This document shows, in pieces, positions 5,475 through 52,495 of a stretch of DNA of 64,000 nt. Origin of the DNA: Phyllosticta citribraziliensis (lineage: Eukaryota); the NCBI RefSeq assembly GCF_038025025.1, contig NW_027117338.1, forward strand, positions 2,418,001 through 2,482,000. Direction: 5' to 3'. How positions within the stretch are numbered: the stretch's first letter is position 1; each line of letters opens with the position of its first letter. The position numbers and the translations under genes were made by a program. The notes beneath the pieces were generated by a model that was not told the DNA's origin, did no database searches, and worked only from the letters and a program-made list of their open reading frames with translations.

Positions 5475-5547
5475 GAGCATTTGTCTGCTACTGTAGTCGC
5501 GCTGAGGGAGCATTCTTTCACTGCTGCATCTAGAGCTAGGGAGTCTC
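5475..5547 (+). repeat. 33-bp-period GAGCATT array A
   Basis: Units begin at 5475 (gagcatttgtctgctactgtagtcgcgctgagg), 5508 (gagcattctttcactgctgcatctagagctagg) and 5541 (gagtctc). Confidence 0.7.
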
Positions 5548-8428
5548 GTTTCTTTCTACACCCACTGTGCCTCCTTTGCAATTGACCATCTTTATTCCTG
5601 ACCGACATGCTCCACGTTTCTCAGAAGGAGAAGTACCAACCGATTATTCCACGTTGAAACAGCAAGAAAATTTTGGGCTCAGACGAGGCTTCTTGAAGTC
5701 GCAAAATTGTTTCAACAAACCGACTGGATTTCGAGTTTCGACGAGGGGACGCATCTCTCCGTTCTATCAGGCAGCGCCTACTCATCGGAGTCGACATTCT
5801 CGACCAGCCCGTCGCAGGCGTCGTCGGTTTGTCTCGGCAGACGATGCTATCACGGCACCCATGTCGCGAAGGGTTTAGTTGCTGTCAACCGAAGCGCTTG
5901 CCATGACCACAGTGATCACAACGCGAAGCTGACCTACAAGTCAGAGAGCTTGCAAGTCGCTATACTGTTTGGAGAAACAAATCTTCCGATGCTGCTTTGT
6001 CTGGGAGAGGCAAAAAAGACAAGCAAGTTGAGTGATGGAGTGGAATGTGGGAGACAAAACAACGGCTGCCTCGCCTCCCGCTGCTGCGCGTCGAGCCTAC
6101 CCAAAGAAGCACGACGGCCCATTTGTGCAACCCTCGGATCAGAATTGGCGCTCCAAGACTATTGTGATCTTATGCAGCCCCCCCGATTGTGCGCTAAGAC
6201 CACAACACACGGAGCCTCCCAAAGAGCAAGCAAGTATTCAATCGCCTTCGAAGTTTGCACGAAATTTCTTGGTAATTTAGCTCAAATTCCTCGAAACATC
6301 CGATAATCAAGCTGGGACTACCACATTCAGCACTCAGAAACTTCTCCAGCAACAGCTTCACCAGCCGCCGCAACTGCCTCTGTCGAAAACGACATTCGCA
6401 ACACTCTCGGAGGACCTCCTCCGTCAAGCAGTGCCTGTTAGACCTGTCCTGACCCAGCCAAAGTCAGTCAGCAAGGTCGGCCAAAAGCCGATGGCTTCGG
6501 CGGCGTCAGACCCGCGGCGGCAAGACTTTGTGCCCTTTATCGCTGTCCTGTGGGTAGTCACTCCTTGGGGGTTCCCATCCGTCCAATGAAGAAGACGGAG
6601 TACATATTTGTAAGTACAACTGGAGAGCGTGTTCGCAGTCTACGTTCATATCGAAGAGGGACAGGGGGTCGCAGGGGCCATCAAGAACGCTCCGTTCTAA
6701 GGTCAATAACAGAGAGAGCATTCAAGACCCAATCCCGATCCCCATCGCCATCTGTCTTGGGACTTTGGCCGGCAAGCCTCAGTCCCTTAATCCTCGCAGG
6801 TGATTGGCGGTTGAGGCGGTTGTGGCGCTACTTTACCGCAACGTTCGCCTGCCATTATTCTCTGCTGTGGGCAACACAAATGGCCTCTCGTTACAGTCTT
6901 GAGCAGCGGTGTGACGATCGAAACGACCCAGTCGAAATTGACTGCGTCTGCTGCCAACAACAATGAAAAACTGAATTAGGGCTTGTAGAAGAGGTCGTGG
7001 GTACATCCGCTCCCCATCTTTGCTATCCAAAACTATCTGCACATAGCTGCCTCTCGTCCTTTTCGCCCTGATTCATGCTTTTTGGAGCATTTTAGTTTAC
7101 TTGCAACTGCATGTACAGAAAATTTCGAATGCTTCTTGCGTTTTGCCTCCTCGGAACTCCGGAGACAGCATTTTTCTTTCCCTTTCAGACTACTGCCAGG
7201 AACATGGACGTTTTGTGGGAGTAATGGAGCAGCAAAGTCAGTCAAACACCACGTTGCATGTGGAACGCGGTGGGCCCCGAAGAGTCTCAATTGCGCAGAA
7301 GCAGACCCAAAAAGCACATGCGCGGCGTCGTACGCCTCCATTTACATCCGTCTCGCGCGTGTCTTGGATTTAGGAGTGCTTCTACCCCTGAGCCCAGTTT
7401 GAATCCATGATCAGTTTCGTCAAGAAGGCCGTCCGTGCGGAGTCGACCATGGAAGGCACTGCTTCTTCATCCACGGTTAGGTACAACAGCCTCGCCATTC
7501 ACGTGCCTTCGCACCGCACCCTTTGCTAGCAAACTGCAACGGCGGCCGCAATAGCTGGTGAGCGCAAATCACAGAGAACTGAAACCTACTCTTCCGAAAT
7601 GGTTTAGCGGTCAAAAATGCAGTCTTTCGGCAGCAGAGCAGCAACACCGCCTGGACTGCCTTGATGCCTCAGGCATCTCTAACCAATGGCAGGGTTTTTT
7701 GAAACCTAGGTATTTCATTGCATCGGCTGACCCGAAAGAAGAGGTGGAAGTCGATGAACAGGATGGAGGGAGGGTTTCGGAGAAGGAAAGCGTGGCGGCA
7801 TTGCGCAGACGGCGATCTGAAGGTGTGGCGGAACGAGACATGATGTAGTTTGACATGATCAACAACTTGATTGGACAGTGTCAAGCCTATAAAGGCAGAA
7901 TAGGCGTACAGAAAAATTGGATGCGGATTGAAACTAGAGGCTCTGCCTGGACGTGCTCGCTATAGAGGGAGGCAAGTAGAAGTTAGGAGCGAGCAACTGG
8001 GCACCGAAAAAAAGAAAAACGCACCCGTCGGCTATGTACCTTGCCTGCTCTGCTGTCTGCCCTCCCTCCACGGCTCTCCCTCCCTACCACCTCAGCGACC
8101 CACGGCGGAACAAAACCACGCACGGCAGTCGTCGGCAATCAAAAGGGCACCGAGAGAGAAAAGCGGCGGTGCGGGCACGACGCCACGGCACGCAGACGGG
8201 CGACGGACGACCAACGACGACGACGACAAGTGAGGACCAACCAACGAACGCACGCATCCAACGCACGATGATGCTCCGACAAAAAAAACTCCACCTCAAC
8301 ATCTCCGGCGGTCCTCCACAAATAATCAAAACGCAAGAGAAAAAAAAAAAAAAAAAACCTTCATCCGTATCGCTACCATGGAACCGCGGCGCGACCTGAT
8401 ATCCTTGTGGCTTGTTCTCCAGTCGCGA

Positions 8429-8528
8429 GTTTTGGAGGGGTAATGGAAACCAGCGCGGGCGAATTTTGAAGGGGTAATGTCAATGTCATGGCTCGCGGCA
8501 GTCCGGTTTTGGAGGGGTAATGGAAACC
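8429..8528 (+). repeat. Three direct copies of TTTTGRAGGGGTAATG
   Basis: Copies at 8430, 8464 and 8507. Copies 1 and 3 share an identical 23-mer GTTTTGGAGGGGTAATGGAAACC. Confidence 0.85.
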
Positions 8529-9594
8529 CCACCGCGCCATGGTGCGGGCCCGCCGCGCCCAACCCAACGAACGCCGATGGGGAGGGAAACCTGGGATGTG
8601 ATGTGAGGCTCCACGGCACTGGCTGCGCTTGACAAGGTGGTGCGTGGAAGGAGGTGGGACACGCCCGCCTGTTTTGCTGTTCTTTCTATGGCGCTGGCTC
8701 GCCGGTGTGGTTTGAAGAGTTTTCTCTCTCGCCAGTTGTCGTCAAATTGACAAGGTATGGTGGATATGGCGCGCGATGCCAGGGTACGTCCGTGGACAGG
8801 TTCTGGGTTTGTTGTAGCGTTGGAGATGGACAGCCACGAGCACCTTTTTCTTTTCTTGCCTCGCGCAAGCCGAGTGTTGGAGGTGCTGTTGTGTTGCAAG
8901 AGACTTGAAGCTGTATTCTTTGCGAAGGACTCTATGACAGCGGTCTGCGACAGAAGAGCTGAAAGCCCTTCGCGATAGTAGCGACAGGGGCATCAAGTAG
9001 AATACATGCAGCGGGCGGGTCTTGCCGTGCCCCTGCTAGCCTCGCGGGCACTATGACATGATTCAAGGCCTCTTCTCCCATCATCTATCCAACGGCGTCT
9101 GCTCAGGCGTCTTCTTGTTGGCCCGTCCGGATTCTCCAACGAGCGTGCGCACGCTCGTGCTCCCAATCCTCTGCCCGGCTGCCTTTTCTTTTCCTTCACC
9201 TCTCCACTATGCCAGCTCCGGAGTCTAGACAGGGCAGGGTGCCTCTTCTGGGCTTGGTAGACGTCCCTCCTTAGCGGGCCGTCGAATCAGAGGGGGCCGA
9301 AGTATAAGTTGGCCCGGTCTAGGGCGCGCCGCAGATCCGGGGGCCGTTGCGGCGGGTTTTTTTCTTCTTTGCTTTTGGCAACCAACATCCATCGACCACA
9401 ACGTCTGGTTTATTCATAGACTGTTCCCCATCTCGTCCGCGTCTCGGCATTCTCTGTCGCTGTCCGCCCACCAAATTGCGGCGTTTGAATTACGCATGCT
9501 TTGAAAGCTGTCGGGCCTGCAATTTTTACATCTTTTTGCATTTGCAAGAGCTTGGGGTTACAGGGGGCGCAAACGAATCAAGGGCCAAGTTGAA

Positions 9595-11707
9595 ATGTCC
9601 CGCCAACCGTCCGGCCAGGATGTCATGGAGGGGAGGGTGTTGATTGTCATCACCGGTACGTCCCCTATGGCGGAGAAGCTTTGGCAAGGAAGATCAAGTA
9701 CTCATGCGCAGCACCGCAGGAGGAACCATTTGCATGCAAGAGTCTGAGGATGGCCTGGTCCCGGTACGTCAAGAGTCTTCACGGCCTTGCGCAGTATGCA
9801 TGTCAGCGCGTCTGATTGAATGCATTTCACTCCCTCAATCTAGATGGTTAACCTTGATTGGCATTCCAGGTACCAGGCTTTCTTCGCGCGGGACTTGCCC
9901 CGCGCCCCTCGTTCAACGACGGGTCCTATCCTGAGCCCCTCGAAATCGTCATCGACGATGCCGGCACGCGCAGAGCGGTCCAGTCGCTGCGCACGCCCAA
10001 GTCGTCGTACAAGCGTCGCGTGCGCTACGCCGTCTACGAGTTTGAGACGCTTCTCGACAGCAGCTCCATCAACGCTGCCGGATGGGACGAGATTGCGAGG
10101 ACCATCTACCGCAACTACACCCTCTACGATGGATTCGTCGTCCTGCACGGCACCGACTCGCTCGCTTACTCGTGCTCGGCCCTGTCCTTTATGATGCAAA
10201 ACTTGGGCAAGCCCGTCATCTTGACTGGTAGCCAAGCGCCCATGAGCCAACTTCAAAACGACGCCACCGACAACCTCCTCTCCAGTCTGGTCATTGCTGG
10301 TCACTTCATGATACCCGAGGTCTGCCTGTTTTTCAATTTCAAGCTCTTCCGCGGAAACCGCGCCACCAAAGTGTCAGCCGACGATTTCAACGCCTTCGCC
10401 AGTCCAAACCTGCCGCCTCTGGCAACCATTTCCAGTCTGCGCACAAACGTCGCGTGGAACCTGGTGCACAGGTCGACGAGCGTCCATCCATTCAGCATCC
10501 AGACCAATCTGGACACGACACACGTGGCATGCCTCAGAGTCTTCCCTGGCATCAAGCCGGAAATGGTGGATGCTGTGCTCCGCCTCGATGGTCTGAAAGG
10601 TCTTGTCCTGGAGACCTTTGGCGCTGGCAATGCTCCTGGTGGGCCCGATTCTGACTTTACGAGGGTTCTGGCGGACGCTGTGAAGAGAGGAATCGTGATT
10701 GTCAACGTGACCCAGTGTCTGAGCGGTAGCGTAAGCCCCCTCTACGCCCCTGCCACCGTTCTTGGCCGGGCTGGCATTGTGTTTGGCCTAGACATGACAA
10801 CAGAAGCTGCCCTGACGAAGCTTTCTTACCTGCTTTCTCTCCCAGGGCTATCGCCCACCGATGTCGCCAAGCGCATGTCCACGTCCCTAAGGGGAGAACT
10901 CACCGAGAGCGGACGGATGCATTTCCAGCACCCGGAGAGCGAACACTCGACGCCGGACGCTAGCACCCTCACGACTCTGGGGTACAAGATAAGGGACGGA
11001 GACTTGGAAGGTGTCAACGAGGTGATGCGGTTCGACAACAAGTGGCTGCTGAACGATGCAGATTATGCGGGGAACACGCCTCTGGTAAGTGCACCGTGGT
11101 CACACACTCATTTCAAGACCGGGGAGTACATGTCGGGGATATCGGAGGCCATCGTGTTCGAGTATGAGCACAAGGGCGACGGTGACCTGCCCAGTCCGTC
11201 GTCGCCGTCGCATCGGTAAATGAGAGCAGAGGCATCGTGTCGTCGCAGAGTCCGACAACGGATGTGAGGGCTATCCGGCGACATTCTGCTCGCAGAAGCA
11301 TTGACCGCCCTGGGGTTCCTTTTGTTTGTCTTGCCGCAGTCTTGCAGGCCGACGGCCAGTTGGGTCGTGTGGTGCTGTTATCTACATACACAGAGACGAG
11401 GCAGTCCGTCCTGCATGGTGCTGACGGCTCGTTATAGCACTTGGCGGCAGCCGGGCCAAACGTCGACATGCTGCGCGAATTTCTGTCCGAGGGCGCCTCT
11501 GTCCACCTACGAAACCGCGCAGGACACACGCCACTTTTCCTGGCTGCTCGTGCGGGGTTGCGCAATCATGTGTTGCTGCTGCGGGAGGCGGGCGCGCACC
11601 TTCACGCAGAGGAGCTGGCGGCGGCGAGGCTCCACGCCAGCGAGAGCGGACAAGACGACAGTGTTTGGGGGGTGGCCGGCGTCGAGATTGGTGCTGACAG
11701 CGGTTGA
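9595..11707 (+). CDS. Type I L-asparaginase with C-terminal ankyrin repeats (60-kDa lysophospholipase-like)
   Basis: The spliced start reads MSRQPSGQDVMEGRVLIVITGGTICM (TGGT motif). Introns 9656-9719, 9764-9869 and 11085-11437. Motifs HGTDSLAY, ILTGSQ, ETFGAGN and DMTTEAALTKL, then ankyrin GNTPL|HLAA and GHTPLFLAA. Confidence 0.93.
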
Positions 11708-12078
11708 GGGATGAGCGGAGAGGGGGTCGGACGTGTGGCGTTTTCGAGGTGTCGTTGGGGTAGGGCGGGTGTGGCTGCACTGCGCCGCAAGCAGATGCGC
11801 TTACCCAAGGAGGTCGAGTCTTCCATGGCCAAGAGGAGGGTGGGTGGTATATGTTGCGAGGTGATGTGTATTCGAAACTTGAAAGAACGGAGTGCAGCGC
11901 AGGTGGTCTGGCGGCTTTGAAGTACGACGATGTCCCTGGAGCATTGGGCTTGAAAGCAAAGAGGTAGGGAATGGCTCCGCGGAGATGGTGAAATGGGGGA
12001 AGTGAGTGGCAGAAATGGCTGAAGGACCGGGGCTTGGTACCTAGCAACAAGGGACCCCCCAATCAGTACTCGATGCTT

Positions 12079-12163
12079 GAATGCTCCCCGTCAGTCGCAG
12101 TCGCAGCGTAGGAATGCTCCCTGTTAGTCGCCGGTACAGGGCATGAATGCTCCCTATCAGTCG
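12079..12163 (-). repeat. 33-bp-period array B (19-bp conserved part plus 14-bp variable part)
   Basis: GAATGCTCCCYRTYAGTCG at 12079, 12112 and 12145, separated by CAGTCGCAGCGTAG and CCGGTACAGGGCAT. Confidence 0.85.
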
Positions 12164-13177
12164 TGAAGTACATGACGGTACGGGAGCCTTGGACGTAAGA
12201 TGTACGGTAGTGGCTGAGTGTCATCTGACGAGGCCTGCTGAGACAGCTGGAGCGGAGCAGGACAAAGGAAGGGCACTGCAGTGTGGGCGGCGTTGCACTG
12301 CCTATTCGAGGATTGGAAAAGAGGTGAGAGAGGTGCGAGAGGTGCGAGACAGGGGGCACCCACCTCACGCTTGCACCTTCTGGCTTGAGGATGGGCGCGC
12401 GGCCAATCAGGGCGTGGGCGTGGCAGCACAGCGCGACGGGCGGGCGCTCAACCCAGCGACGACGTCTTCCCCGCAATTGGCGACGGAATGGGCATGCCCA
12501 CGCGAACTGGAACGCTCCCCCTGTCTGGCCGCGCCCTACGACACTGCACTGCGGGCGGGTGTTGGTGAGTGAGTGAGTGAGTGACTGAGTGTTGTTGTTG
12601 TTCCATGTCGTCTCATGGCGCCGCCGTCGCACGTCACCGAGTGCCGTCAAGTCGAACCCAAGGTACGACTCAGTCCGTCGGCCTGCAAAAGTCGGCGGAG
12701 GCGCCCCGAGGAGCTGCCATTAGGTAATTGGAGCAGGCCCTGGTGCCCTTAAGCGTTCGCAGCACCCTCGCTCGCGCACATTCGTCGTTGACTAACAGTT
12801 AAATATCTGCTCCCACGCGGCTGGGCGACCGCCCTCTCTGCTCTGGCCCTGGCCCTCGTGGACGCAACTTGGGTGCCCTTCCATACCTTACCTTACCACA
12901 GACCGTTGCCGACTACCTCTTCCTGACCTATACCTTACACACACCTTGGTAGCTCAGGCCATGTCCTCCGCCTGCCATCCCCCTCTTCCACTGCTCCTCT
13001 AATATCTCTCCTCTCTCTTCTTCTCCCTGCTCTGCTCTGCCCATCCACCCCCGCAGACACTGTGCTGTCAACGACTGGACTCCCTCCTGTCCCGCTCCGC
13101 TCTGCGCTGCTCTGCTTCCCTCTCCAACTCTGCTCCCGCCGTCTGCCACCCTCCCAGCCTCGAATCCTCCACTCCGC

Positions 13178-14370
13178 ATGCAAGACAGAAAAGTCGTCGT
13201 TACCATCAACAGCACCGGCCGCCAATCGGCAAGCTTCATCCGCGTCGCCGCAGCCGTCGGATGGCATGTCCGCGCCCAAACCCGCGACAAGCAGGGCATT
13301 GTAGCACAGGAGCTGGACACTACCCCCGGCGTCGACCTCCGAATAGGATCTCTGGACGACTCGCGCTTCGTCGCTGACCTCTTCCATGGCGCCCAGCTCG
13401 CCTTCGTCAACACGACCCACTGGGGCGACGAGATTGCTACCGGCCGCGCCATGGCGAATGCTGCCAAAAGGGCTGGCATAGAGCATCTCATCTACAGCAG
13501 CATGCCCGACCACTCCATCTACCAAGGCCACAACTGGAGAGCCCTGCCCTTCTGGGCCCAAAAGTTTGCCGTCGAAAACTACATCCGCCAAATCGGCATT
13601 CCGGCCACCTTTGTCTACGCAGGCACCTACCACAACAACTTCACCAGCCTGCCGTACCCGCTTTTCCGCATGGAGCTCAAGGACGATGGCAGCTTTGAGT
13701 GGCAGGCGCCCTTCCACCCGCACATTCCCATTCCGTGGCTGGACGCCGAGCACGACGTGGGACCCGCAATCTTGCAAATCTTTAAACAGGGTCCGAGAAA
13801 ATGGGCAGGCCATCGGTACGTAGTGCGCACCCGCAGCCTCAGACAGGGATCCGCTTGCGGCTTGGATCCTTCCTTTTTTCCTTTTGTCGCCAAGAATCTG
13901 AACCGTTGGTCGCTCTGCGCATTCGGGAATCCGCTAACTCAAGCCACAGGATCCCGCTAGCGTTTTCGCAGCTCACACCGGTCCAAGTTTGCGAGGCCTT
14001 TAGCCGTGCGCTCAATCGCTCTGTCCGCTACGTCCGAGGACCCATTTCCATCGAAGTGCCAGTCCCGGCCGGCTATCGCGAGCATCTAGAGATTCTCGAG
14101 GAGACGCTGGGTTGGAAATGTGCGCCCTACTTTGGTCCCGACCTGGAACCCGACTGCACTCGCGAGGCTCTCGACCTGTGGGAAGGTTTCCGGGACATCG
14201 AGGAGTACGCGCGCGAAATCTTTCCCGTCGAAGAAAGGGCGAACGGTCTGACGTGGATGGACGAGGATGACGCCACGGATGGACAACCGGAGCCCGACGA
14301 TGTGTCCTCGGAGCCGACTTCGGAACCTCCAGCCCGAGACTCTCAAATCTTTCAGATTATGAACTTATGA
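13178..14370 (+). CDS. nmrA: Nitrogen metabolite repression regulator NmrA/NMR-1
   Basis: TGRQSASFIRVAAAVG, IYSSMPDHS, NNFTSLPYPLF, PWLDAEHDVGPAILQIFK and EEYAREIFPVEE closely match Aspergillus NmrA as I recall it. Intron 13816-13949. Confidence 0.93.
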
Positions 14371-14887
14371 GCTACATGCATGGCTGGCTAATTTTTTTTT
14401 GCATTGCGTTGGCGTTCAATGTGCGGCATAAAAAAATGGGCGGGTAAGATATCAACTGCGTGTGATGCAGAAACTTCGGCAAAAAAAGAATAATACGTCG
14501 AGATTCATAAAAGCATTCGAGGCATTGATTGTCTTTTCCCCATGGTTTGATTCAGATAGCTCGAAGCTCTACTCTTGTCGACAAGCTGGTTGGAATTCGA
14601 TTTGCTTGTGGTGACCTGCACGCCGAGCGTGTCGGTGGCTTGATGTTAGACGTCATTTGCATCAGACTGGAAGGAACTTGTGGGATTGAAGTTGGTCTAG
14701 TTGAAGTAATTCTTTAATCTCAATTAAGAGTATTTCGGTTCCTGGTGCATCACTGTCCAGGCAGAGTTTCTACTGGTTGCCAAGCCCATGTTGTCCGCGG
14801 AGGTCAGGGCTTAGTCATCTCTTCAACACCAGGGCGCGCATCTCGGAGACATCGCGGAAGAATCGCCATCCTCCGCAACCACCCACA

Positions 14888-18348: not shown

Positions 18349-18535
18349 GGGAATCATTCAATGGCCTGGGGCAGGACATCTTTCACGAGCATTATGATGG
18401 CCTGCTTGATACTAGGGAGCATTCCTACACACACCCACTGCATGTCGCCAAGACACATCCAAGTGCAGCCACTGCGTCGTGCTGGGGAGCATTCATCACG
18501 TCCAACACCAAGTACTGAGGAGCATTCATGCGCCA
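18349..18535 (+). repeat. Degenerate GGAGCATTC array C
   Basis: GAGCATTC at 18417, 18487 and 18520 (last two 33 bp apart), with degenerate cores near 18352 and 18387. Confidence 0.7.
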
Positions 18536-19250
18536 CTCCTCTCCTCTTCCACGCATCCGTCTCTTACAGTCTTCCTTGGAACGAAGCATCCAAACACCCC
18601 CGCAAAGACCATAAACCTAGGATCACCTCCCAAAAAAAAAAAAAAAAAAAAGTCGGGCCAAGCCGCTTCTCAAAAATCCACCAACCACCAACCCAAGGGA
18701 GCATGACCTTAGCCTTCGCATGGCAAAATCACTCGCCTAAGCGGCCGCAATGCACCGAGTCGAGTAGCGTCGAGTGGACGGAACGGTGCAAGCGGGCACG
18801 GCAGACGGGGCAAGCGGGCGGGCGGGGGCAAGGAAGCAGCAGCGCAAGTGCCTTGGCCACGAGCCGAAAAGGGACAATACGCAGCGGCGGACGTGCCTAT
18901 TGGACGAACGACCGGGGAAAAAGGCAGGGATGCGGTATAGTGCCTAATTCTCGTTTGCTTGGCTGGCTGGCTGGGTCCCGGGGGTTCGGGCGTTTGGTGG
19001 GTGAGGTGGTGTATATATGGTGTGTTTGCGCCTGTTGTGGACGCGGGAGGGCGCTGAGTGAGTGAGTGAGTAAGCGGCGACTCACTGGACTGACTGATTG
19101 ACTGCTGCTGCACTGGCTGATTCTTTCTCGCAGGAGGAAGGTAGATTCGCGGCTTTGAAGAGCTTGGCTGCCAGTTCGAGGTGGCACTGCTTTTACGTGG
19201 AGTAAGAGGTAAAAAGAGAAAGGAAAAGAAAAGAAATTACATATCCAGTC

Positions 19251-21032: not shown

Positions 21033-21164
21033 GTGGTCGATGAGTAGCTGAAGATTGTGCTGACAAGTCGTGACAGGGAGCATCTGCCTGGTGTCAATGT
21101 AGCGTAGTGGTAGACAAGCATTCCAGCTCCTAGTTGCAGGTGAAATTCGAACATCCCATAGTTG

Positions 21165-21260
21165 CGCCTAGGGAGCATTCATCTGCTATTACAGTGACGC
21201 CTAGGGAGCATTCATCTGCCATGACAGTGACGCCCAGAGAGCAGTCGTCTGCCATCACAA
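21165..21260 (+). repeat. 33-bp-period array D (best-preserved tandem)
   Basis: gagcattcatctgctattacagtgacgcctagg at 21173, gagcattcatctgccatgacagtgacgcccaga at 21206 and gagcagtcgtctgccatcac at 21239. A further gggagcat core lies at 21076. Confidence 0.9.
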
Positions 21261-22722
21261 ACGCGGCTAAGCAGCTGTGGTTTGTTGCCGCAGCTAGACC
21301 CGGGAGCCTGGGTCTTTTTCTTCGACACCCGCCACGATGGGAGTAATCTTGTGGGTCACTGCTATTGGCAGTCAGTCTCGGCGGACTGGTGTCGGTCCAT
21401 AGCGTAGCGAGGAGGAACAATGAAAAGACCGGAGAACAACCAAAGGCCTGGCCTGACGGGTAATACAGGCTGAAGGTGACGACGGGTGCCTGACGAAATC
21501 GGAGTTGTCCAGCTAAGCAGCTGTGAGATGACATGGCCAGCTGATAAGTGGCGAGCGACCTGACGCAAGGAGTGGGCAACTGGGGTCACGGGCTCGGCCG
21601 GTGGTGGGAACAGTCGGCGGCCATGGCGATGGCGATGGACGGAACTGAAGCGTATGTAGACGGGCGGCAGCAGTAGGTGCAGGCGCTAAGGTGGATGGTT
21701 TGGAGCGGGCAGAGGTTCGGTTGCCATGTCAGGTCGTCGTCGAGTCTGTCTTATCGCGAGGCCCCACAGCCGCCCAAGGTAGGGCACCTGGCAGCATCCA
21801 TGGATCGGCTTGGTGAGCGTCCATCAGATGACGAGCTTCGCAAAGTGAACCGAAGAGGCGCTCCACGGCGGAATGGATGGACGTAGGTGACATGCTAAGT
21901 AGACATGCTGCAGCAGAGTAATGTATGTCGAGAGCTGCTGCATCACCTCCCCACGACTTACGCTTCCGGGCTTAGGCCAAGACGTCCCGCACGACCTGCC
22001 CCAAGCTGCGGTGCCGACCTCACCTCACCTCTTCGTCTCCAAACCACTCCATCTCACCAGTCCCGATCCTGCTGGCGCCAACTCATTCTTTTCCACCCTG
22101 AGCTTGTTCCTCTTCTGCTCCCCGCCGTCCGCCGCTCCGCTTCCTGCATACCAACAAGTCCCTGCCCGTCAAACGTCATCCGAGTGGAAGCGCTCCTCAG
22201 TACCCACCTTACCAACCGCACTTCCGCACTCCTCCATCGCCGCCGCCGCCGCCTAGTCTTGCCGCATCTCCTCTACAGCAACCAGCCAAGCTTGCTGCAG
22301 CTTTGCGTCTCCGTTGTTAGCTCGTTTCCAACTCCACCGCCGTCTGGCTGCCCGCTCCACGACCGACTCCGTGCGGGAGGCGTTCAGTATCACTGCAACG
22401 CCTCGCACGACCTCAAAGGCCCTTCGACCTGGCCGACGAAACTCCCCCTCACCATCCAAACCTGCACGCCTCCGCCTCCCAAGCCGAATCACGTCCGGAA
22501 CTATCCTCGCACGCGGCACTCCTAGCACCACCCTCTCTCGGAGGGGCTCCATCCCACCCCGCGAGATCCACGCCTCTGAATACCTCGTCTTCGCCCTCTT
22601 CGTCCACCATCAAGCGCACACGAAGTGTATCGCCAGGCTCTTTTGGGCTGCCAACCTATAACCAACTCATATCGGGCGAGGCCTCCCGCGGGCCGAAGCG
22701 CAGGCGCAAGGACGAACACACC

Positions 22723-24824: not shown

Positions 24825-26094
24825 CCAGCAAGCCACCAAATGGTACTTCGTCTCCACCCATCCCCGGTCTACCAAGTCTGCACTAAACATGCGTCCCTAT
24901 TACGATGTTTACTGCGAAAAGCACGAGGCCGGAGGGCTCTGCGTGACGACTACTCACACAACGATCCCGTTTTCTGGAAAGACAATCTACTGGCCATCCT
25001 TTACGCTGGACAAGCTACAAACTTGAATCCCTCTACTTCAGCCGTTTTGAGTTTCCACCCTCGGATCCGGAACGCCAACGCTCGATAGTATCTACCGGGA
25101 CTCATGCGGCTGGCTTCTATAATCCCGGGCGTTTCCGGGCACAACCCTGTCACATAAACCCTTGATTCTCCGTACCCTGGAGACGACCGCTGAAGAAATT
25201 CAACAACATTGACCTCAGAGCCAAGGCCGATGGACTGCTCATCCACGATCCAGCTTCAGGTCGCGGCTCAGTCAATTCTGCCGAAATATCTACAAACATG
25301 GGACGGAGTATGGCTAAGAAATTTTCCCCATTTTGCCCCAAGGCTTCTTATTTTTCTCTAGAGTGGTGGCGGGCAGACCATGAACTCTTTCGGAGGCTAT
25401 TTCTCTTTCACTATCCCCTCGATTCGACATTTTTGATGTTACCGTAGGCGACTGACACAGATATTGAAGGTCTTGCGGGATGAAGCAGCAGGCGTTTTTC
25501 CCATCTTTCTCCCTTTCTGCTCCTTCATTAGCTCCCCTCCCTTTCTTTTATGCGGACATATTCATGCGCACAATTACCCCTTCATGTTTTGCACTTACAG
25601 CACTGCACTTGTACGGAAGAGAGGAGGGCGTGCCGGATGGATGAGCAAGTGGGGTGGAACAGAGTGATCAAGCAAGCGAGCGAAAATAGGAGTTTGGTGT
25701 TGACGGATCCACAAGGCATCGTCCGTACCTTTTACATGGCCATCACATTGTTGATGGGTCAGTCGCTGCGGCGACGTGGAGGCTTTGTCGAGGCTTTTGC
25801 TGGCCATGGAGCGATGGGTGGACTAGATAGGGGGATGAGTAGGTAAGTAAGGTATAACCAAATACAACCTCATAATCTCGCCTGTTTCTCGGGATGTGGT
25901 TCCGCGACGCAAACTCCAAGAGACTCATAGACACAAGTTGGGCGTGCGATTGCATAGTCGAGTTGGCTTCCTAGATTCTGGCAGCTGAGCTCGTGCCTCT
26001 TCTTTTCAGGCTCGATAGAAAGAATGAGACTCCGAGGCTTGGTCACGAAAGTCGTAGCACACACAACAAGAACAGAGAATCAGTCTCACTCATC

Positions 26095-26180
26095 AGGACA
26101 CATTCATTTGCTCTATGTACTAGACAGCTGGCGGGGGGCATTCATACGTTATAATTGACGAATGGCAGGGAGCATCCAAA
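26095..26180 (+). repeat. Degenerate array E of the GGGAGCATTC family
   Basis: acattcat (26100), ggggcattcat (26135) and gggagcatcc (26168), with 34-38 bp spacing. Confidence 0.45.
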
Positions 26181-26555
26181 CGTCGAGTGCCTTGCAGCCG
26201 ACAGAAGATTCCGTGCGAAAGTTCACTGCAGTCGACGACTTGCCCGAGGACCATGACTGCACCTGCCCATTTTTCCTGCTGAACACCGGCAGTCAGGCTG
26301 GGGCATCTCTTCCATAATACAATCACTCTCTTTCCACAAACACCGGCTAAGTCTTTGCTATTCTTCCCACATCGGCTTACCAAAACATTCGTTCGCCTCT
26401 ATCATCTTCGACGCCTCTTTCTAGGCCATCGTCATCTCATCCAGTGAGACATTGATCAGCGCATTGCATCGAGGCCGCTCGCCATATCATCGAGGATACA
26501 AGGAGGATTCCCAATCGTCCCGGAGCTTTCCATCTTGCACGTCAAACAAACAAGC

Positions 26556-27556: not shown

Positions 27557-27981
27557 CGAGGGGCTGGAGTGCTTGGATGTGGTGGTGCACATTGGCCTGG
27601 GGGAGTTGTGTGTGTAGGACCTCTGTCCGCATGTCGTCTTCGGTTGGCGGGAATGCCTGCTCTGGCTGGTTGAAAGGGGTCAAGGTTTCCATGTGGCATC
27701 TGCGGCTTGGGTGGTCAAAGATTGAAGGACACCGCGTCTATGCGCCCAGAGCACAACTGGTGACGCAGGTGGGCAAAGTAGACTCAAAGCTGGCTCGCAG
27801 AATAGTGATTACAGTCAAAGAGTCGACGGTCGAAAGAAGACTTTGAGAAATCGGCTTGCGAGCAACGCAGACTCCATTGCCTGTGGTAGTTACGAGTTAC
27901 CAAAGAGGAGATTGCACCATCAGAACCACAGGGAGGCGTCGAAAGAAATCTGACGCCGTGGGTCTAGCGGTGGTAAAGAAC

Positions 27982-28040
27982 GACAGCTCCCTGAGTGCAA
28001 CCATCACGGCAGACAAATGCTCCCTGAGCGCAGCTGCTGT
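27982..28040 (-). repeat. 33-bp-period array F
   Basis: gacagctccctgag at 27982 and aaatgctccctgag at 28015. The minus-strand unit is gagcatttgtctgccgtgatggttgcactcagg. Confidence 0.75.
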
Positions 28041-28657
28041 TATATGAAAGCAGACGAGAATCTCTGGGTCGACTTGCAGTGAATGAATTCTCCCTTCACA
28101 TAGCGGCATCGCTCGAAGATCTCGTTTCTTTTTACAATTACCACGCAACGATGGGCGAAAGAGACGCGTTTTCGCGGGCAAGTGCCGGGCTGTCGTTGTG
28201 AGCGGGTGGCTTGTCGCGCACACGACAGACAGCAGAAGCTCTTGTTTGGTCTATTGCACACACTGGCAGTATCTGCGCGCACGCAGAGGCTCTGATTGAC
28301 TTTGGAAAGTTTTCCCCCGGATTCAATCTATCTTTTGGTTGTTTCTTGATTTCAAGTCCCATTGGATTTTCAAAGGCCGGGTGAGATGTCGCTTACCGCA
28401 CGCAGTGCACTTCACGCAGGGCCAGGAGCACGTCTCTTTTCGTGATTGGAGGTCGCTCGAATGGGGTCCTCGCTCTGACGGGTTTCTTGTTGGAGAAGTG
28501 GGCGAGACGCCCTGGTATCACATCGACACTCCCCGAAAAGCTTCATTGCAGAGCAATCAATCAATCAATCGACCCACCACCGCAGACCCCAGCACTCCTC
28601 TGCGCCGCCATTCTTGTCAAACTCGCTTCTCGTTCTCCAAGTCAGTCGCCCGCGCGC

Positions 28658-41142: not shown

Positions 41143-42446
41143 ATGTTCACCAACCTCTTTTCCAACATCCAAAACACGCTACAGCGCTTGAATCGGCAAG
41201 TGGAGCAAGCGCTGCAAGAAGCCCTCGATCAAGCGGCCGAAGCCAGGCAAGCCCAACAGCACCAGGAAGGCAGCAGCAGCAGCAGCAACTCTGCCCAACA
41301 ACGCGGCGCACCCTCATCGTCGCCATCGTTGACGCCGCGCGTCCGCGACGTCCACGCCGCCAAGCAGCTGCTCATGCGGCCGCCCTGCAACCTGCCGCTC
41401 GAGCTCGTCGTGCTCGTCCTCGACTACGCAGAGTACTGGCCGGTTCTGGCACGCGCGGGGCGCGCTGACCGCGTGCGGCTCGACGCGGGCTTTCTTCCCG
41501 GAAATTGCATTGCCGACTTGTACTTGGCTTCGCCTGCCCTTCCGCTGGCGGATGTTGACAGGGGCGAGAGGGCCAAGCCGCGGGAGGTCAGGGTTTGGGT
41601 CAAGAGCCGCGATCAAGGTTGGGTTAGCCAGGACAGGAGAGGCTTAGGTATGTTGTCTCCTATCTTTGGTTTCACTCGTTTGTTGTCCTCGTTGGCCAAA
41701 GTTTCAGTTATCTTCATTCATGAAATGACCCAGGTGTGGACGAAAGCTCCCCGGTTTCATCAACAGTCGTGAATGAATGCTCCCCAAACGCAGTCGCGGT
41801 ACCTGGTTGAATCGCTGTTTGCTCTTCGTTTCATTTTCTGAACTTGAGTCTATCTAACAACACACGTAACAAGACCCCTACGCACAATCCTACTCGTGGT
41901 TTGACGCCTGCATCTTCCGTCCAACCAGCCCCAGCATCTCATCATCAACATCGACAACGATCGCCTTGCCGCATCTCGACCGCGTTGCGAAGCCCGCTGA
42001 TGCCGTGGGAGCTCTTGCCGCTGCATCCATGTGCTTCGTCCCACGGACTGTGGTCAAGCAGCGTCAAAACGAGCAGACTGGCCTGCTGGAAGACGTGCAT
42101 GAGACCGAGGAAATCGGGTTGTGGCGGCTGCAGTGCAACCGCGTCGCGGAGCCACGGCCCTGGCAGCACCGCATTGTTTGGAGAGAAGGGGATGGAGGGG
42201 ATGCGCAGGGGTTTGTGGAGACGCTCAAGGAGGGCGATAGGGTTGGGGTGTGGGCGAGGGCCATGGTGAGTTGTCCTAGTTTCCTTTTGAGCCCCTGCCT
42301 CCACTTCTCGGCGAAGTTGGGCATTGAGTCTTGCTCGAAATTTGTCCGCGGGTCCAACTCGTTAGCTAACGCTTTTTGCATAGTTTCCCGGGTGGACAAA
42401 TCAGGTGGAAGCTATGGCGATCGAGGTGCGCGGCTCGGTCATTTAA
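41143..42446 (+). CDS. Conserved fungal uncharacterised protein with an F-box-like N-terminal motif
   Basis: LPLELVVLVLDYAEYW, SRDQGW, SYSWFDA, LQCN and GDRVGVWARAM|FPGWTNQV. Introns 41648-41873 and 42266-42383. Confidence 0.82.
41742..41816 (-). repeat. 33-bp-period array G, intronic
   Basis: gaaagctcccc at 41742, gaatgctcccc at 41775 and gaatcgct at 41809, inside intron 41648-41873. Confidence 0.75.
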
Positions 42447-42729: not shown

Positions 42730-45064
42730 CTACATTCTTACAATAGCACCGCCACCAACATGCCTCCTTGCGTAAGCGGGCTCGGCATACGAAGGCTCCT
42801 CAGCAGCTGAGCTCGCAGGCTCCGACTCCGATACCGATTCGGCAGCGGGAGTCGTGGTAGCGGGAGCCGCAGCAGCAGGGGACTCAGCGACAGGCGCCGA
42901 AGCGATGTGAGACGCAACAGGCGTGGCCGCGGGCTCAGCGTACGAGTCGTATTCCTCGGAGGAATCCTCGCTGGAAAGAGGAGACGACACGACAGGCACC
43001 ACAGGGGCAGCGGAGTTCTTGGAGCCAGCGTTGTTGGCAACGGGAGACGGTACAATAGGGACCACAGGCGCAGCAGAGCTCTGGGAACCGGCGTAGCTGG
43101 CAATTGGAGAAACGACAGCCGGAGCCGCGGCGACAGCGGCGCTCAGGGGGTCCTTGCCGCCCTTGGTGTAGACGCTCAACGTGCCGTCACCACCGCACGT
43201 CTGGCCTGCGGCGCCGACGCATGGCATGCCGCACTTGGCGTCGTCGACCTTCTTGCTCTGGGACAGCGTGTTCGAACAGAAGCACTGCTGGCCGAATTCG
43301 ACGCCCGAGATGCTGAAGCCCTTCGACGCGCAGTGGTTGGCGCAGCCCGTCGCCGTCATCTTCTCGCCGAACCAGGCAAAGGTCTCGCCCGAGAGCGAAC
43401 GCGGGTTCACAGCGTCCGAGTAGCAACCTGTGGACGACCAGGAGGCCGGCAGCGTCAGCGAGGAAGCGCTGGGCATGGAGCCGTGGGAGTCTTGCGAGCC
43501 GCCGTTGGAGCCGGAAGACTTGGACGAGGAAGAGTCTGGCACTGCTTTGTTGCCGGAGGAGACGATGGCGGAGGGGTAGCTGGCAGCAGGCGAGACGTAT
43601 GAAGCCATGTCAGGGGAGATGGCAGGCTTTGCCGCGCTGCCGCCGCTCACAGCAGATGCAATGGGAACAGCAACGGATGGAAGGGCAGGAGAAGCGGGCT
43701 TGGCTGCGCTTCCACCAGCCGACCCACCAGTGGAACCACCAATCGTTCCACCGATGGCAGATGCCACGGGAGCGGCAGCAGATTGGATGCCAGAGTAGAC
43801 TGCCTTTCCTGCGCTGCCGCCAGTCGAACCGCCGCTGGGCGAAGCAACACCGGAGCTCTTGGACCCATAGACAGGAGTCGCCCCGCTAGCCACAGCAGAG
43901 GAGGCAGCAGAGGGAACAGCTTTGCCGTTGATGGTGGGGTTGATGTTGCAGTTGGCCACAGCCGTAGCTCTCTCCGGACCCTTTTGAACGGGATTGCAGC
44001 CGGGCAGCGCAGGCAACCAACCGTCGACCTTCTCGTCAACGATTGCCGTCTGGCTGCAAGCATTGCGCTCGGCATCGGTGTTGACCTCGAAGCAGTTGGA
44101 CAGGGGCTCGCCGCTCTCGCCAATGTTGCACGTCTTCATGGCGTTGCCGAGGACGCCCGGGGTCCAGCCGTTGAGGAAGTCGGCGTGGAAGCTGTAGCCT
44201 GTCGGGTCGCCGTTGGACAGAACCCAGGGGGTGTCGCCAGCGCCGTACTGGCCGTTGAAGGACGACACGTCGAACCAGAACTCGATGAAGATGTGCGGCA
44301 GCACGTGGGGGTGGGTCGAGGGACAGGCGCCGCTGTCGGAATAGTCGCCGACGGGGTACGACATGTGTGCCTGGGGCGCCGAGACGTTGAAGTCCTGCCC
44401 GTTCCAGCAGTAGGGGAAGTGGATGGAGCCGGCCAGGCCGTTGGCGCACGACGTGAAGCCCGAGGGGAACCCGCTCGACTTGCTGTCGGGCCCGTGGCAG
44501 AACCACTCGACGGCGCCTTGCATCTGCTTGGTCGACGCCGGCGAGCGCAGCATCGAGTCGCCTGCAATCATGCGGAAGTTGGGCGGGAACTCTTCAATCA
44601 GGTTGAAGTCCTGCTTGCCCGTCTTTGGGTCCGACGCGCGGTTGCTGTGGACCACCGTGTTAGCTACATCGTCGAGCAACAAACAGGGACAATGCTTACA
44701 AGTAGTACAGAACCCTGTGGTGCTCAGGGACGCGGATGAAGCTCTGGTTCTTGGGGTTCTGGAAGTACAGCGACGGCATCCAGTAGACGCTCTTGTCGGG
44801 CTTGACGTAGACCTGACTGCAGGACGCCTTTTGCGCGTCGGCGAAGCTGGTGTTTGCGCTGATGACGGGGGCGCCAATGAAGCTGTGGACGTGCGGGCTG
44901 AGCTGGCCCGGGTTCAGGATAGGATCCAGTCGCTGGACGTTGAGCGGCTGGTTGATCCACTCTTGCCGGAAGTAGTGGCCGTGGTAGTCCAGCTTGGTGT
45001 AGTCGACTTGGGCGCTGGCCGTGACCGACAGGGCCGCGAGGGCCGCAAGAGACTTGGTCAACAT
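42730..45064 (-). CDS. Secreted DUF1996 + WSC domain protein
   Basis: Signal peptide, RLDPILNPG..HVH, DKSVYWMP, FPPNFRMIAG, FPYCWNG and HADFLNGW (DUF1996). Ser/Ala/Pro linker, then WSC (GCYSD...C..C...GVEFGQQCFC...CGG). One short intron at about 44699-44645. Confidence 0.93.
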
Positions 45065-50649: not shown

Positions 50650-51956
50650 TCAATGCTGCATCAGCATACGGCTCGCTACTTTTGATGATTCGATTTCCGC
50701 CTTTTCCAGCAGGTCGCTATCTGTGCAGCCCTCTGGCTTCAGGACTGGATTGCACCTGGCAAGACGCCTGCCCGGCAGCTCAGCAACGTAGTCGGTGCCA
50801 TATCTGCTCGCCATGCCCATTGCCGGCCAATCCGTGCTCACAATCTGCGCTCCACTCTCCAGGGCCCGCTCGAGTCTTTGTCTGGATCTCTCAATAGGCA
50901 AGAGCACCGATCTGATGGGCTCATCCGCCCGCGTTCGTACGAGGTAGCCTTTGCGCACTAGCTCTTGGATCTGCTCGAGTTTATCCCCCGATGGATCGTT
51001 CATCTTAATGAATGCAGCATCCGGCTCTCCTGGGACCGAATTGGTGAAGATGACGCGACCCTCGAGGTTCTTGTGGGATTTGCCGCGATACGGGTCGCGA
51101 AGATTTGGAGAACCGTCTGGGTCGTTGTCCATGTAAAAGAGGAACTTGCCCCTGCTCTCGTCCAAGGATGGCCATCCGTATTGCAGGACGGCCTGTTCCA
51201 AGGTCAATTGCTTCTTGGCATGCTCTTGGGCGGCCAATCGCACGTCATCCGGAGTGATGAGCCGCGAATCAGTCAGGATGCTGCGGATTTCTTCGTCGAC
51301 ATAATCCAAGTTCGTTGAGTTCCACGATTCACCCCGGGGTCCGCCCAGGACGATTATGCGCTCGTCAACGGTTTTGAATTCCAGGTCGACGAGGATGGGC
51401 AAATGGCCGGGATTGCTCTTTGACCAGTCTCGGAGATGCGTCAGGCAAATTTTGAAAGTCGGACATACGCTTTCGACATCTGCATCGGGAATGTGAAAGA
51501 CCTTGGCACTTCGCTCCTTCATCTGCGCCGACCACTCTTTGGTCGGGGGTTGATATTGACCCAATCGGCGGATGAGTGGGTCGGCAAACTGCCCCGGTTC
51601 ATCATAGTCGGCGTACAGATCAATCTCGAGGCTTCGCACAGACTGGTAGTCGAGTTGGTTGGGAAACGAGGCATGGCTGTAAAAATAGTCCTGGGGCGAC
51701 GGCATCAAGAGTTCAAAAAACGGTCTCCCGATAATGTTGACTTCTTTGTGGTAGCTGTTGTGCGTGCCCATGAACTGCACTTCGTTCAGGCGTACAGGGC
51801 TGTCGCTACGAGGGGTGAAGGGGTTTGCGAGGGCCAGAGACAACACAGCTGGTAAGACGGGTCAGTACTGGTGGACAAATTTGGCTGGGAAGAGCCCCAA
51901 CATGAGAGGACGAGATATCTGATCAAGTCACCTGCACATTGCGATGATTGGCGCAT
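50650..51956 (-). CDS. Ca2+-dependent PI-PLC X-domain protein (Streptomyces PLC1-like)
   Basis: GTHNSYH, VRSLEIDLYAD, NPGHLPI, WPSLDESRGK, GYLVRTRAD, SGAQIVSTD and ARCNPV. The main exon is 51848-50650; the short first exon (51956-51932) is uncertain. Confidence 0.85.
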
Positions 51957-52450
51957 CTTCTGAGGGCGGTCAGCTTGGGTGGAACGACGGGTAGCAGCAA
52001 GGTTGCGACGCGACGCGACGTACCTCTAGCGTTGGTCGCCGTCTTGTCAGACAGCAGATGGAGGGTTGGAGTTGTCGTGATGCGCACTCGGAGGCGACGG
52101 GAGAGTGGCATTGAAGTAGGCCAGAGGTTGAGGTGGTTGTTGCTGAGGTTGGCCATGGCGGGGTTCGATGATGTATCCTTGCAACGGCCTACCAGGTAGT
52201 TTGTGCTTCACGTGGCGGGTTGCCACGGGTTCATTGGACCAGTCTGTCCAATCTTTTTGCATGAATGCGAACCTTCAACCAATATTGGATTGATGAAAAT
52301 GTTGACTTTCATGGCCATGATGTGGCAGCTCCTCGTCACCCGGGCACGTTGGGGATTGACGTAATGTACCGTAGGTACTGCACCGATTCTCGGAGAGCTG
52401 AGCTGCGGTGCGGCGAAAAGCCGCGGCATATGCAACCACTTCCTTGAATC

Positions 52451-52495
52451 GGCTGCTCCCTGCATCCACTCTTGGAGGAGCTCCAATGCTCCCAT
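52451..52495 (-). repeat. Degenerate 33-bp pair H
   Basis: ctgctccc at 52453 and atgctccc at 52486, exactly 33 bp apart. Confidence 0.45.

Follow-up and report, generated by a model that had tools for sequence, protein, structure and literature searches.

The 64,000-nt stretch of DNA analyzed here, hereafter the window, carries short arrays of a conserved core repeated at 33-bp intervals at scattered sites, and the question is what these arrays are. A sequence-only reading had offered three answers, i.e., phased sites for a binding protein, a non-autonomous element or self-propagating minisatellite, and relics of an 11-amino-acid coding repeat, and it had argued against the second by stating that inverted ends were missing. 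It is this second answer that our data support, as inverted ends exist and contigs break there: the arrays quite probably form the inner part of small MITE-like DNA transposons, a non-coding family with members of approximately 160 to 220 bp. What appeared to be a mysterious dispersed motif is turned into a concrete MITE-like family, which is of an ordinary kind except for how regular its interior is.

The core GGGAGCATTC, with at most one mismatch, was found 23 times in the window compared to 5.56 ± 2.43 times in shuffled sequences, a count reached in 0 of 100 shuffles. At the same tolerance, five same-strand core pairs were separated by 33 bp, compared to none in 200 Markov-1 random sequences; when up to two mismatches were allowed, eight same-strand pairs lay exactly 33 bp apart against a random mean of 0.06. 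Tandem Repeats Finder reported 33-bp arrays at 12079-12163 (2.6 copies) and 21165-21259 (2.9 copies). The presence of dispersed repeat arrays was thus borne out by an excess over random sequence of both core and period, and the earlier statement that cores are 33 bp apart at seven of eight sites agrees with the spacings measured, i.e., 33/33 at A, B, and D, 70/33 at C and F, approximately 37/34 at E, and 33 at G and H. Units from distant sites had also been described as related beyond the core, and this likeness was seen again between 5475-5515 and 21173-21213 (78% over 41 nt) and between 21198-21248 and 27980-28030 (75% over 51 nt). No additional convincing copies were detected by a profile scan of the window, in which five non-training matches scored at least 9 bits compared to 5.4 expected.

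Table 1. Array sites and terminal repeats in the window
Feature	Position	Strand	Basis or content
Copy A, complete 157-bp element	5413..5569	+	Inverted repeat, contig loose ends, DNA fold
Left terminal inverted repeat of copy A, CACAGTGGGTGTCCAAAGAAATGCGAC	5413..5439	+	27 nt, 85% complementary to 5543-5569
Right terminal inverted repeat of copy A, ends CACTGTG	5543..5569	+	Pairs with 5413-5439
Array B, three 33-bp units	12061..12159	-	Profile 17-30 bits
Array C, units at 18410, 18480, 18513	18410..18545	+	Profile 22-24 bits
Copy D, three units 21166-21264 plus tail	21166..21334	+	Right-end motif at 21316-21330
Copy E	26016..26195	+	Left-end-like 26016-26033; units 26129, 26163 (spacing 34)
Copy F, ~222-bp element	27926..28148	-	Left end 28120-28136, right end 27927-27948
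Array G, two units 33 bp apart	41724..41789	-	Profile
Site H (52451), two weak core-like matches 33 bp apart	52433..52498	-	Profile 10-11 bits

Seven of the eight sites originally listed stand, which for 64 kb amounts to a copy every 9 kb or so, at gene ends, while the site at 52451 is weak and lies inside a predicted coding frame. Its profile scores compare poorly with the 17 to 35 bits of 18 of the 19 other training units, it sits in frame inside a 211-codon open reading frame (ORF; 52211-52843) for which a 93%-identical 214-amino-acid predicted protein covering the site is present in the library, and no inverted ends were found there in the end search; site H is probably a chance coding match and not a member of the family. 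Copy A consists of the left inverted end, a 28-nt spacer, approximately three 33-bp units, of which the first (5468-5500) is degenerate, the second spans 5501-5533, and the third runs into the right end, and the right inverted end. Array B has perfect cores in all three units and unrelated or very different interiors, with no recognizable ends and no end remnants in a search around the array. Array C, located between genes upstream of a GH1 gene, contains a decayed unit within its 70-bp gap and perfect or nearly perfect cores; a search for end remnants found none. Copy D, without a left end, is positioned past the stop codon of the GH1 gene (~21106) and within RNA contigs; at 21238, 9, 5, 2, and 2 contigs have a G. 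An additional degenerate unit is present near 26092 in copy E, and the units of copy F are 28067-28099, 27997-28029, and 27964-27996 plus one decayed. All sites had been taken as intergenic or intronic; this needs amending for B and D, whose presence inside RNA-derived contigs indicates UTR-like transcribed DNA, and the intron assumed around 5475 was absent among the 15 joints listed of 87.

Terminal inverted repeats, previously said to be lacking, were found as the 27-nt pair of copy A, and its ends recur at D, E, and F. The pair of copy A ranks first among 32 close-range inverted pairs in the window, and the local inverted-repeat score is 34 at copy A compared to 16 to 19 at the seven other sites, with only A standing out. 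Folded as single-stranded DNA, copy A is better than 199 of 200 shuffles (z = -3.3). The right end of A was detected again at D (p = 0.017) and F (p = 0.005), the left end of F matches in 16 of 17 columns (p = 0.0007), and the left end of E matches the inverted right end of A in 17 of 19 columns (p = 0.0013); array G has a weak left-end-like stretch at 41826-41839 (p = 0.03). All four matches to a 15-nt end motif in the window adjoin arrays. By this inventory, A and F possess both ends, D the right only, and E the left only, with none or weak ends at B, C, G, and H; a clean end pair within the window is seen at copy A only. No similarity between units and inverted ends was found in 20 comparisons (smallest p = 0.09). 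Directly outside both ends of A is the 4-bp string CCTC (5409-5412 and 5570-5573), a single case read from the sequence; at widths of 2, 3, or 5 bp the two adjoining flanks differ, and the flanks of copy F are too decayed to read a duplication.

Contigs of four public runs (X1, X4, X5, and X7) from organisms A to D, i.e., this organism and three relatives, were compared to the window; summed contig depth represents no copy number and was not used as one, and conclusions were confined to the parts of the window with listed contigs, array C not being among these. The contigs match copy A and then run into unrelated flanks, breaking at the inverted-repeat ends. Loose ends at 5412/5413 came from 3 (X1), 12 (X4), 3 + 2 (X5), and 2 (X7) contigs and those at 5567-5571 from 6 + 2, 8, 1, and 3 + 5, respectively, with flank consensus agreement of 0.42 to 0.70 except for a single-contig row at 1. 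Low flank agreement together with shared break points indicates many copies that have different neighbors and end at the inverted repeats. In this organism as in the three relatives, the family thus exists as multiple dispersed copies, which have common sharp boundaries at the inverted ends; these paralog boundaries are ambiguous by 1 to 2 nt, the flanks being known as a low-agreement consensus. Leftwards from 21156, 13 X4 and 7 X5 contigs enter left-end-like sequence that copy D lacks, and other contigs join A-like to D-like parts (5445 to 21169, 5523 to 21177, and 21214 to 5517). Element copies were also carried in transcript contigs of two RNA-derived runs.

The relatives differ in length at all three loci with listed joints, i.e., A, B, and D. 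One X4 contig (organism B; at a single-copy depth of 78.8) joins 5403 to 5570 via 22 other letters, so that copy A may be absent at the same locus in organism B, this single contig reflecting either an empty site that is clean or what a deletion left behind; the 22 letters possibly retain a left-end remnant (15 of 22 columns by eye). Array B is altered and of different length in organism C, which also lacks approximately 56 nt of copy D. Nine X4 contigs match array B and then diverge at 12112. The 33-bp spacing is retained in paralogs: in the loose-end consensus before 12112, as in that before 5505, the next core is 33 nt away by our own count. As unit number and presence vary among close relatives, the arrays are of interest for strain typing.

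Terminal inverted repeats, a small size without coding capacity, and dispersed copies that share sharp boundaries are properties that the family has in common with MITEs. A full copy would start with a left terminal inverted repeat of approximately 27 nt beginning 5'-CACAGTGGG, continue through a short spacer into two to five tandem 33-bp units, whose interiors vary around the core (T)AGGGAGCATTC(A), and finish with the right inverted repeat ending CCCACTGTG-3'. Copies would have been moved in cut-and-paste fashion by a transposase encoded elsewhere that recognizes the ends; a scan of 22 ORFs in the window revealed no transposase. With a spacing of about three helical turns, the phased cores could provide extra putative binding sites for this transposase or a partner, comparable to the subterminal repeats of En/Spm and Ac, and such a role would account for core and spacing being kept while interiors drift; a binding role of the cores, for transposase or host factor, is purely our inference. 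Unit number might then shift through slippage or unequal exchange, and older copies might lose one or both ends and persist as bare arrays such as B, C, and G. Against the MITE reading, B and C show no end remnants, the perfect cores of B beside strongly diverged interiors are unlike the neutral decay of an old copy, and the codon-like RY periodicity described below is left unexplained. A transfer RNA or SINE origin, considered from the A-box/B-box look of 21100-21160, was rejected as ARAGORN returned 0 genes and Rfam 0 matches. It is rather doubtful, yet conceivable, that the phased cores form a cooperative array for a transposase or host factor, with arrays seeded beside approximately one gene in three in this fungal group and some serving as promoter, UTR, or chromatin-phasing modules; if so, the RY periodicity and a unit-like last exon of the GH1 gene would suggest that units are occasionally taken into coding sequence. 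The family is relevant to how small transposons spread protein-binding motifs near genes, and the fixed 10-bp core with its regular 33-bp phasing offers a handle for finding the putative recognizing protein.

Could the arrays instead be a dispersed minisatellite or another class of repeat, without cut-and-paste movement, the inverted repeat of A being local and incidental? Arrays B, C, and G without ends, a target duplication that is only a candidate, with CCTC at A, and the lack of a transposase among the ORFs scanned are in keeping with this, but four separate arrays have these end sequences in common, and the contigs of four runs have their break points there, rendering it very improbable. 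Gene conversion with segmental duplication, a Helitron fragment, or a retroposon would also fall under this explanation; the arrays have neither a poly-A tail nor a tRNA-like head, and Rfam gave no match. We consider it improbable as well that they are host cis-regulatory or chromatin elements, i.e., phased protein sites under selection for which a transposon was at most the vehicle. Here, selection would keep arrays at promoters and gene ends, and candidate binders include a multi-zinc-finger protein or, given the CATTC within the core, a TEA/ATTS factor. In favor of this, strongly divergent interiors surround a core and a 33-bp spacing that stay the same, as at B; core columns of the profile hold 1.2 to 1.7 bits compared to 0 to 0.4 for most interior columns, although locating arrays by their core biases toward conserved cores. 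The sites lie between genes or at gene ends, but their orientation is mixed and their positions are unsystematic, one site lying in a divergent promoter, another past a stop codon, and others in transcribed sequence. The response element of TEA/ATTS (AbaA/Tec1-type) factors has the consensus CATTCY; of the 11 intact cores, 8 have an A and 3 a pyrimidine following CATTC, which is a poor fit. Plant MITEs that spread transcription-factor motifs are described in the accessible part of one report (PMC5950925), which would fit such a vehicle. Since three loci differ in length between close relatives, conserved boundary elements are argued against; phased binding sites, the first of the earlier answers, thus survive as a property of the element but not in a conserved boundary role.

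The remaining alternative, which we regard as highly improbable, is a past or present coding function, in which each array derives from or still forms an 11-codon repeat of (P)REHS plus small hydrophobic residues that exon duplication spread or that an element brought along from a coding source. Its basis is the run of RY triplets noted earlier in the unit interiors, which was reproduced: in the frame xGG GAG CAT TCx, 47 of 105 interior triplets are RY compared to 20 and 16 of 105 in the other phases (background, 0.24), counts that are not independent since the units share ancestry. A stop occurs in this frame in only 1 of 21 units, and in copy D the frame is open through 56 codons, but with a 33-bp period, a frame that is open in one unit stays open in every copy. 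The GH1 gene ends in an exon (21077-21108) that is itself unit-like (13.6 bits) and by our own reading is translated in the same frame, and a 33-bp array on L002, an unrelated metagenome contig, reads PRREHSITVTS. Against coding, arrays of either orientation are found past stop codons and in intergenic DNA. A search with the translated array of copy D in a library of 5.8 billion proteins, covering 815 longer candidates and 74 of similar length, gave no relative at E ≤ 10, a weak negative. Of this answer, the codon-like periodicity holds while a protein relative fails to appear. For gene prediction, it matters that the arrays resemble open frames while one unit-like stretch is a real last exon.

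Metagenome matches to two cores 33 bp apart were rejected as relatives of the MITE-like family: the 17 loci, approximately 12 of them distinct, are all unrelated 33-bp tandem arrays that contain the core because the search required it. Only L002 (4.2 and 3.3) and L006 (3.0) reached the 99th percentile of the null (2.9) with the non-core profile, which is driven by composition and from which no inference was drawn. Of 80 papers containing the core or end strings, the 20 listed include none on a fungal repeat and are mostly primer-like matches, and no paper on MITEs of Phyllosticta was among those listed in a literature search.

To place the MITE-like family among known systems, we compared its ends and flanks to those of several superfamilies. 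The mimp elements of Fusarium oxysporum are MITEs of approximately 200 bp with inverted ends of approximately 27 nt beginning CAGTGGG, are often located upstream of genes, and belong to Tc1/mariner with a TA duplication. Size, length of the inverted ends, and the start of the end are mimp-like here, unlike the CA and TG outside CAGTG that are common to the paralogs; to our knowledge, mimps have no internal tandem array. Tc1/mariner itself was rejected, as CA/TG lie outside CAGTG...CACTG and TC/CC outside CACAGTG...CACTGTG in place of TA. An 8-bp duplication outside ends of the form YARNG is a hAT feature, and with the end taken as CAGTG (5415), the flanking 8-mers match in 6 of 8 positions; against this register, most paralog contigs share two further bases, to 5412/5413 and 5569. 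A hallmark of En/Spm is repeated subterminal protein-binding motifs, which are irregularly spaced, whereas the cores here are strictly phased, and EnSpm/CACTA elements feature a transposase with DDE and C(2)C / H(3-4)H motifs. As given in the accessible text on the CMCT group (PMC12730594), EnSpm/CACTA termini are 5'-CAC..GTG-3', a form that CACAGTG...CACTGTG has, and duplications are 3 bp in EnSpm and 2 to 5 bp in the wider group; at copy A, the adjacent triplets CTC and CCT differ, while the adjacent 4 bp, CCTC and CCTC, match. CMC elements are reported mostly from Basidiomycota and Mucorales, and fungi lack Transib, according to the portion available of another survey (PMC5751038).

A close comparison by description is with the 13 MITE families of Zymoseptoria tritici, another Dothideomycete with MITE families in gene-rich DNA, as presented in the accessible part of its report (PMC4522978). 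Those elements are likewise short, non-coding, multi-copy, and bounded by inverted repeats, are enriched in gene-rich DNA, and are shorter than the length subject to repeat-induced point mutation. Nine of the 13 families have 2-bp duplications, TA in eight, unlike the flanks here, which are not TA, and an internal phased 33-bp repeat is not mentioned in that part of the text (PMC4522978). Elements with a repetitive interior are described elsewhere: as far as the available sections go, the BrickBuilt MITE of Porphyromonas gingivalis (PMC4596501) likewise carries a minisatellite inside an inverted-repeat-bounded element, an architectural analogy only, as it is bacterial and unrelated in sequence and transposition system, and the microsatellite-associated MITEs of pineapple, in the excerpted account (PMC8449440), likewise contain an internal tandem repeat, in a plant and as a microsatellite rather than a 33-bp unit with a conserved core.

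The core GGGAGCATTC and its arrays are real. The window holds 23 matches to the core (at most one mismatch) compared to 5.56 ± 2.43 in dinucleotide shuffles, with none of 100 shuffles reaching 23, and Tandem Repeats Finder reported 33-bp arrays at 12079-12163 and 21165-21259. The 33-bp spacing of cores claimed in the sequence-only reading was borne out, as five same-strand pairs lie exactly 33 bp apart, compared to none in 200 random sequences from a Markov-1 model; when up to two mismatches were accepted, 8 pairs were found against a mean of 0.06. A profile was built from 21 units placed in register, and its informative part is AGGGAGCATTCnTnCnC, with 1.2-1.7 bits in the core columns and 0-0.4 bits in most interior columns. 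Scanning the window at ≥13 bits returned 21 matches, training units included, compared to 0.95 in random sequence; at ≥9 bits with training units excluded, 5 matches were obtained against 5.4 expected, indicating that the window contains no further copies. Seven of the eight array sites originally claimed stand. The eighth, site H (52451), scored just 10-11 bits and lies in-frame within a 211-codon open reading frame (ORF), with a 93%-identical 214-aa predicted protein in the library spanning the site; it is probably a chance match in coding sequence.

Coordinates of the array sites and of the ends and boundaries of copy A
Feature	Sequence	Position (strand)	Remark
Site A		5413-5569 (+)	
Site B		12061-12159 (-)	
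Site C		18410-18545 (+)	
Site D		21166-21334 (+)	
Site E		26016-26195 (+)	
Site F		27926-28148 (-)	
Site G		41724-41789 (-)	
Site H		52433-52498 (-)	
Left inverted end of copy A	CACAGTGGGTGTCCAAAGAAATGCGAC	5413-5439	27 nt, 85% complementary to 5543-5569
Right inverted end of copy A	GTCTCGTTTCTTTCTACACCCACTGTG	5543-5569	27 nt, 85% complementary to 5413-5439
Left boundary of copy A, contig break-offs		5412/5413	X1 3, X4 12, X5 3+2, X7 2
Right boundary of copy A, contig break-offs		5567-5571	X1 6+2, X4 8, X5 1, X7 3+5

The arrays had been described as lacking terminal inverted repeats, which proved wrong: the array at 5475 (copy A) is flanked by a 27-nt inverted pair with 85% complementarity. Of the window's 32 inverted pairs within 400 bp, this one ranked first, with a local score of 34 compared to 16-19 at the other seven sites, and the 157-nt copy folded as single-stranded DNA reached -28.7 kcal/mol against -19.5 ± 2.8 for shuffles, 1 of 200 equaling it. 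With null distributions from 2000-3000 random 120-nt window stretches, the right end of A was matched downstream of arrays D (p = 0.017) and F (p = 0.005) and not downstream of B, C, E, G, or H. Its inverse was found upstream of F (16/17, p = 0.0007), E (17/19 columns, p = 0.0013), and, weakly, G (p = 0.03); B, C, and D had no match on that side. The window's four matches to a 15-nt end motif all adjoin arrays, a count not itself above chance (4 versus 1.85; reached by 11/100 shuffles). This pattern of recurrence indicates two complete elements, A (157 bp) and F (~222 bp), two copies with a single end each (D the right, E the left), and three bare arrays (B, C, and G).

Part of the stretch is present in 13 public runs. 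Contigs of runs X1, X4, X5, and X7, from organisms A, B, C, and D (own and related organisms), were aligned to positions 5300-25299 at a likeness threshold of 80%. X1 and X5 behave as RNA; 14 of the 15 joints listed are GT..AG introns, which occur in X1, X5, or both but are absent from X4 and X7. Contigs of every run match copy A before continuing into unrelated sequence, and the consensus of these loose parts agreed at just 0.42-0.70, except for a single-contig row at 1, indicating that flanks differ between copies. The break-off pattern is that of a dispersed family with fixed termini, and these coincide with the inverted repeat. Leftwards of 21156, 13 X4 and 7 X5 contigs enter left-end-like sequence, an end that copy D is without; other contigs link A-like with D-like parts (5445->21169, 5523->21177, and 21214->5517). 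At 21238, within a mutated core of copy D, the canonical G was present in 2, 9, 5, and 2 contigs of the four runs. By manual count, the next core lies 33 nt away in the loose-end consensus before 5505 and before 12112, so the spacing is kept in paralogs with differing interiors. The summed word depth of RNA-derived contigs at 5535 was 12,467 in X1 and 7,564 in X5, and the element-containing bin had depths of 2,118 and 1,150 compared to 35 and 62 one bin further on; transcripts thus carry copies of the element. Summed contig depths do not equal copy numbers.

By sequence comparison, the 33-bp units are not copies of the inverted ends. Array B has three identical cores with barely alignable interiors, unlike the neutral decay of a tandem duplication. 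Finding arrays by their core exaggerates this contrast between core and interior, as decayed units lie in the gaps of 70 bp within C and F. The simplest account of the units would be that selection within the transposon lineage has favored a core that binds protein and recurs at a constant phase. The En/Spm and Ac transposons carry protein-binding subterminal repeats, to which the putative role of the core may be likened.

Immediately beyond each end of copy A stand the four bases CCTC, in this single copy; the adjacent 2, 3, and 5 bp are mismatched between sides, and TA is not present at the flanks. If the end is shifted two bases inward (CAGTG), the flanking 8-mers agree at 6/8 positions at copy A; against this inward register, the two outer bases beyond CAGTG are common to most paralog contigs. 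Fungal EnSpm and the wider CMCT group are reported to have 5'-CAC..GTG-3' termini and short duplications (2-5 bp for CMCT) (PMC12730594). Transib is reported as absent from fungi and Dothideomycetes as holding few DNA transposons (PMC5751038), yet CACTA elements and 13 MITE families are catalogued in Zymoseptoria tritici (PMC4522978). We therefore call the family MITE-like and limit the CMCT label to its termini. The unknown class of element entertained earlier is not needed for this undescribed family with inverted ends, whose notable, standout feature is the strictly phased core. Of 80 papers containing the core or end strings, none of the 20 listed deals with a fungal repeat, and nothing listed by literature searches dealt with Phyllosticta MITEs.

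The three loci with joints listed are all labile between species, the compared species having about one-fifth of 31-mers in common with the window. In one X4 contig at single-copy depth (78.8; n = 1), position 5403 is linked to 5570 through 22 other letters, so organism B is without at least 135 nt of copy A. Judged by eye, the last 5 of the 22 letters resemble 5404-5408 and are followed by a single CCTC, as a clean empty site would show; an equally visual comparison likens 15/22 columns to the left end, in which case the letters would be what a deletion left behind. An organism C transcript contig spanning the GH1 and WDR26 genes lacks ~56 nt of array D (21117->21209, 32 letters between), and organism C is also altered at array B (12114->12270, 6 letters between).

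The reported run of RYN triplets was confirmed as a coding-like periodicity in the frame xGG GAG CAT TCx, where 47/105 interior triplets are purine-pyrimidine-N compared to 20/105 and 16/105 in the other phases. This frame has a stop in 1 of 21 units, and copy D, open for 56 codons, translates as PREHSSAITVT PREHSSAMTVT PREQSSAITNA. The arrays sit after stop codons and between genes, and no protein relatives at E ≤ 10 were found among 815 longer and 74 similar-length candidates.

The GH1 gene has a 48-nt GT..AG intron (21029-21076), which two organisms' RNA contigs show as spliced, followed by our own reading by a 10-codon last exon ending at 21108. This exon is unit-like (13.6 bits; 73% to a copy F unit) and, by the same reading, is translated in the frame that gives REHS in the units; exonization of a unit or chance may account for it. 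Metagenome contigs were retrieved by a search for two cores 33 bp apart. At 1-530 (minus) of one, L002, this core recurs in about ten units of 33 bp, the first of them at the stop codon that closes a 239-aa ORF, which by eye looks like a lumen-targeted FKBP. In one frame these units read PRREHSITVTS, near PREHSSAITVT of copy D, and in our comparison third positions alone distinguish its four ITVT codons from those of D. L002 had non-core profile scores of 4.2 and 3.3 versus a 99th percentile of 2.9, with an unrelated array (L006) scoring 3.0, and the likeness may be chance. Contigs L004, L010, and L013 have 7-12 33-bp units alternating GGGAGCATTC and GGTAGCATTC, which start where a eukaryotic gene has an apparent exon-intron junction (CAG|GTAGG); the 13-mer TAGGGAGCATTCA is common to all three and the window units.

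A Pfam scan of 22 long ORFs of the window matched, among others, asparaginase, NAP, a GH1 glycosidase, a WDR26-like WD40 protein, USP7, a DUF1996/WSC protein, PI-PLC, and COG2; the USP7 fragment has 93% identity to a Phyllosticta capitalensis protein, with the next best matches in Botryosphaeriales, which places this fungus among the Dothideomycetes, near Phyllosticta. No Pfam family at E ≤ 0.001 was assigned to ORFs 29855-31867 (-, 671 codons), 3945-5180 (-, 412), 26456-27553 (+, 366), and 53584-54825 (+, 414). RNA contigs from organisms A and C show a 353-nt GT..AG intron at 11083-11437, either at the asparaginase ORF's end or beyond it. Region 13304-14637 is a plus-strand gene with strong expression, its summed X1 RNA contig depths being 36,195 and 17,697 in two bins versus ~1,000-3,000 in most others. 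It has an intron at 13815-13948, and the two ORFs scanned there have no Pfam match. At 8429-8528, the 23-nt direct repeat GTTTTGGAGGGGTAATGGAAACC occurs in three copies (two identical, one 74%) at spacings of 34 and 43 nt, adjoining an A18 run at 8340-8357. A 63-bp tandem repeat at 42980-43110 (2.1 copies, 77% matches), in the DUF1996/WSC gene region, is probably a coding repeat.
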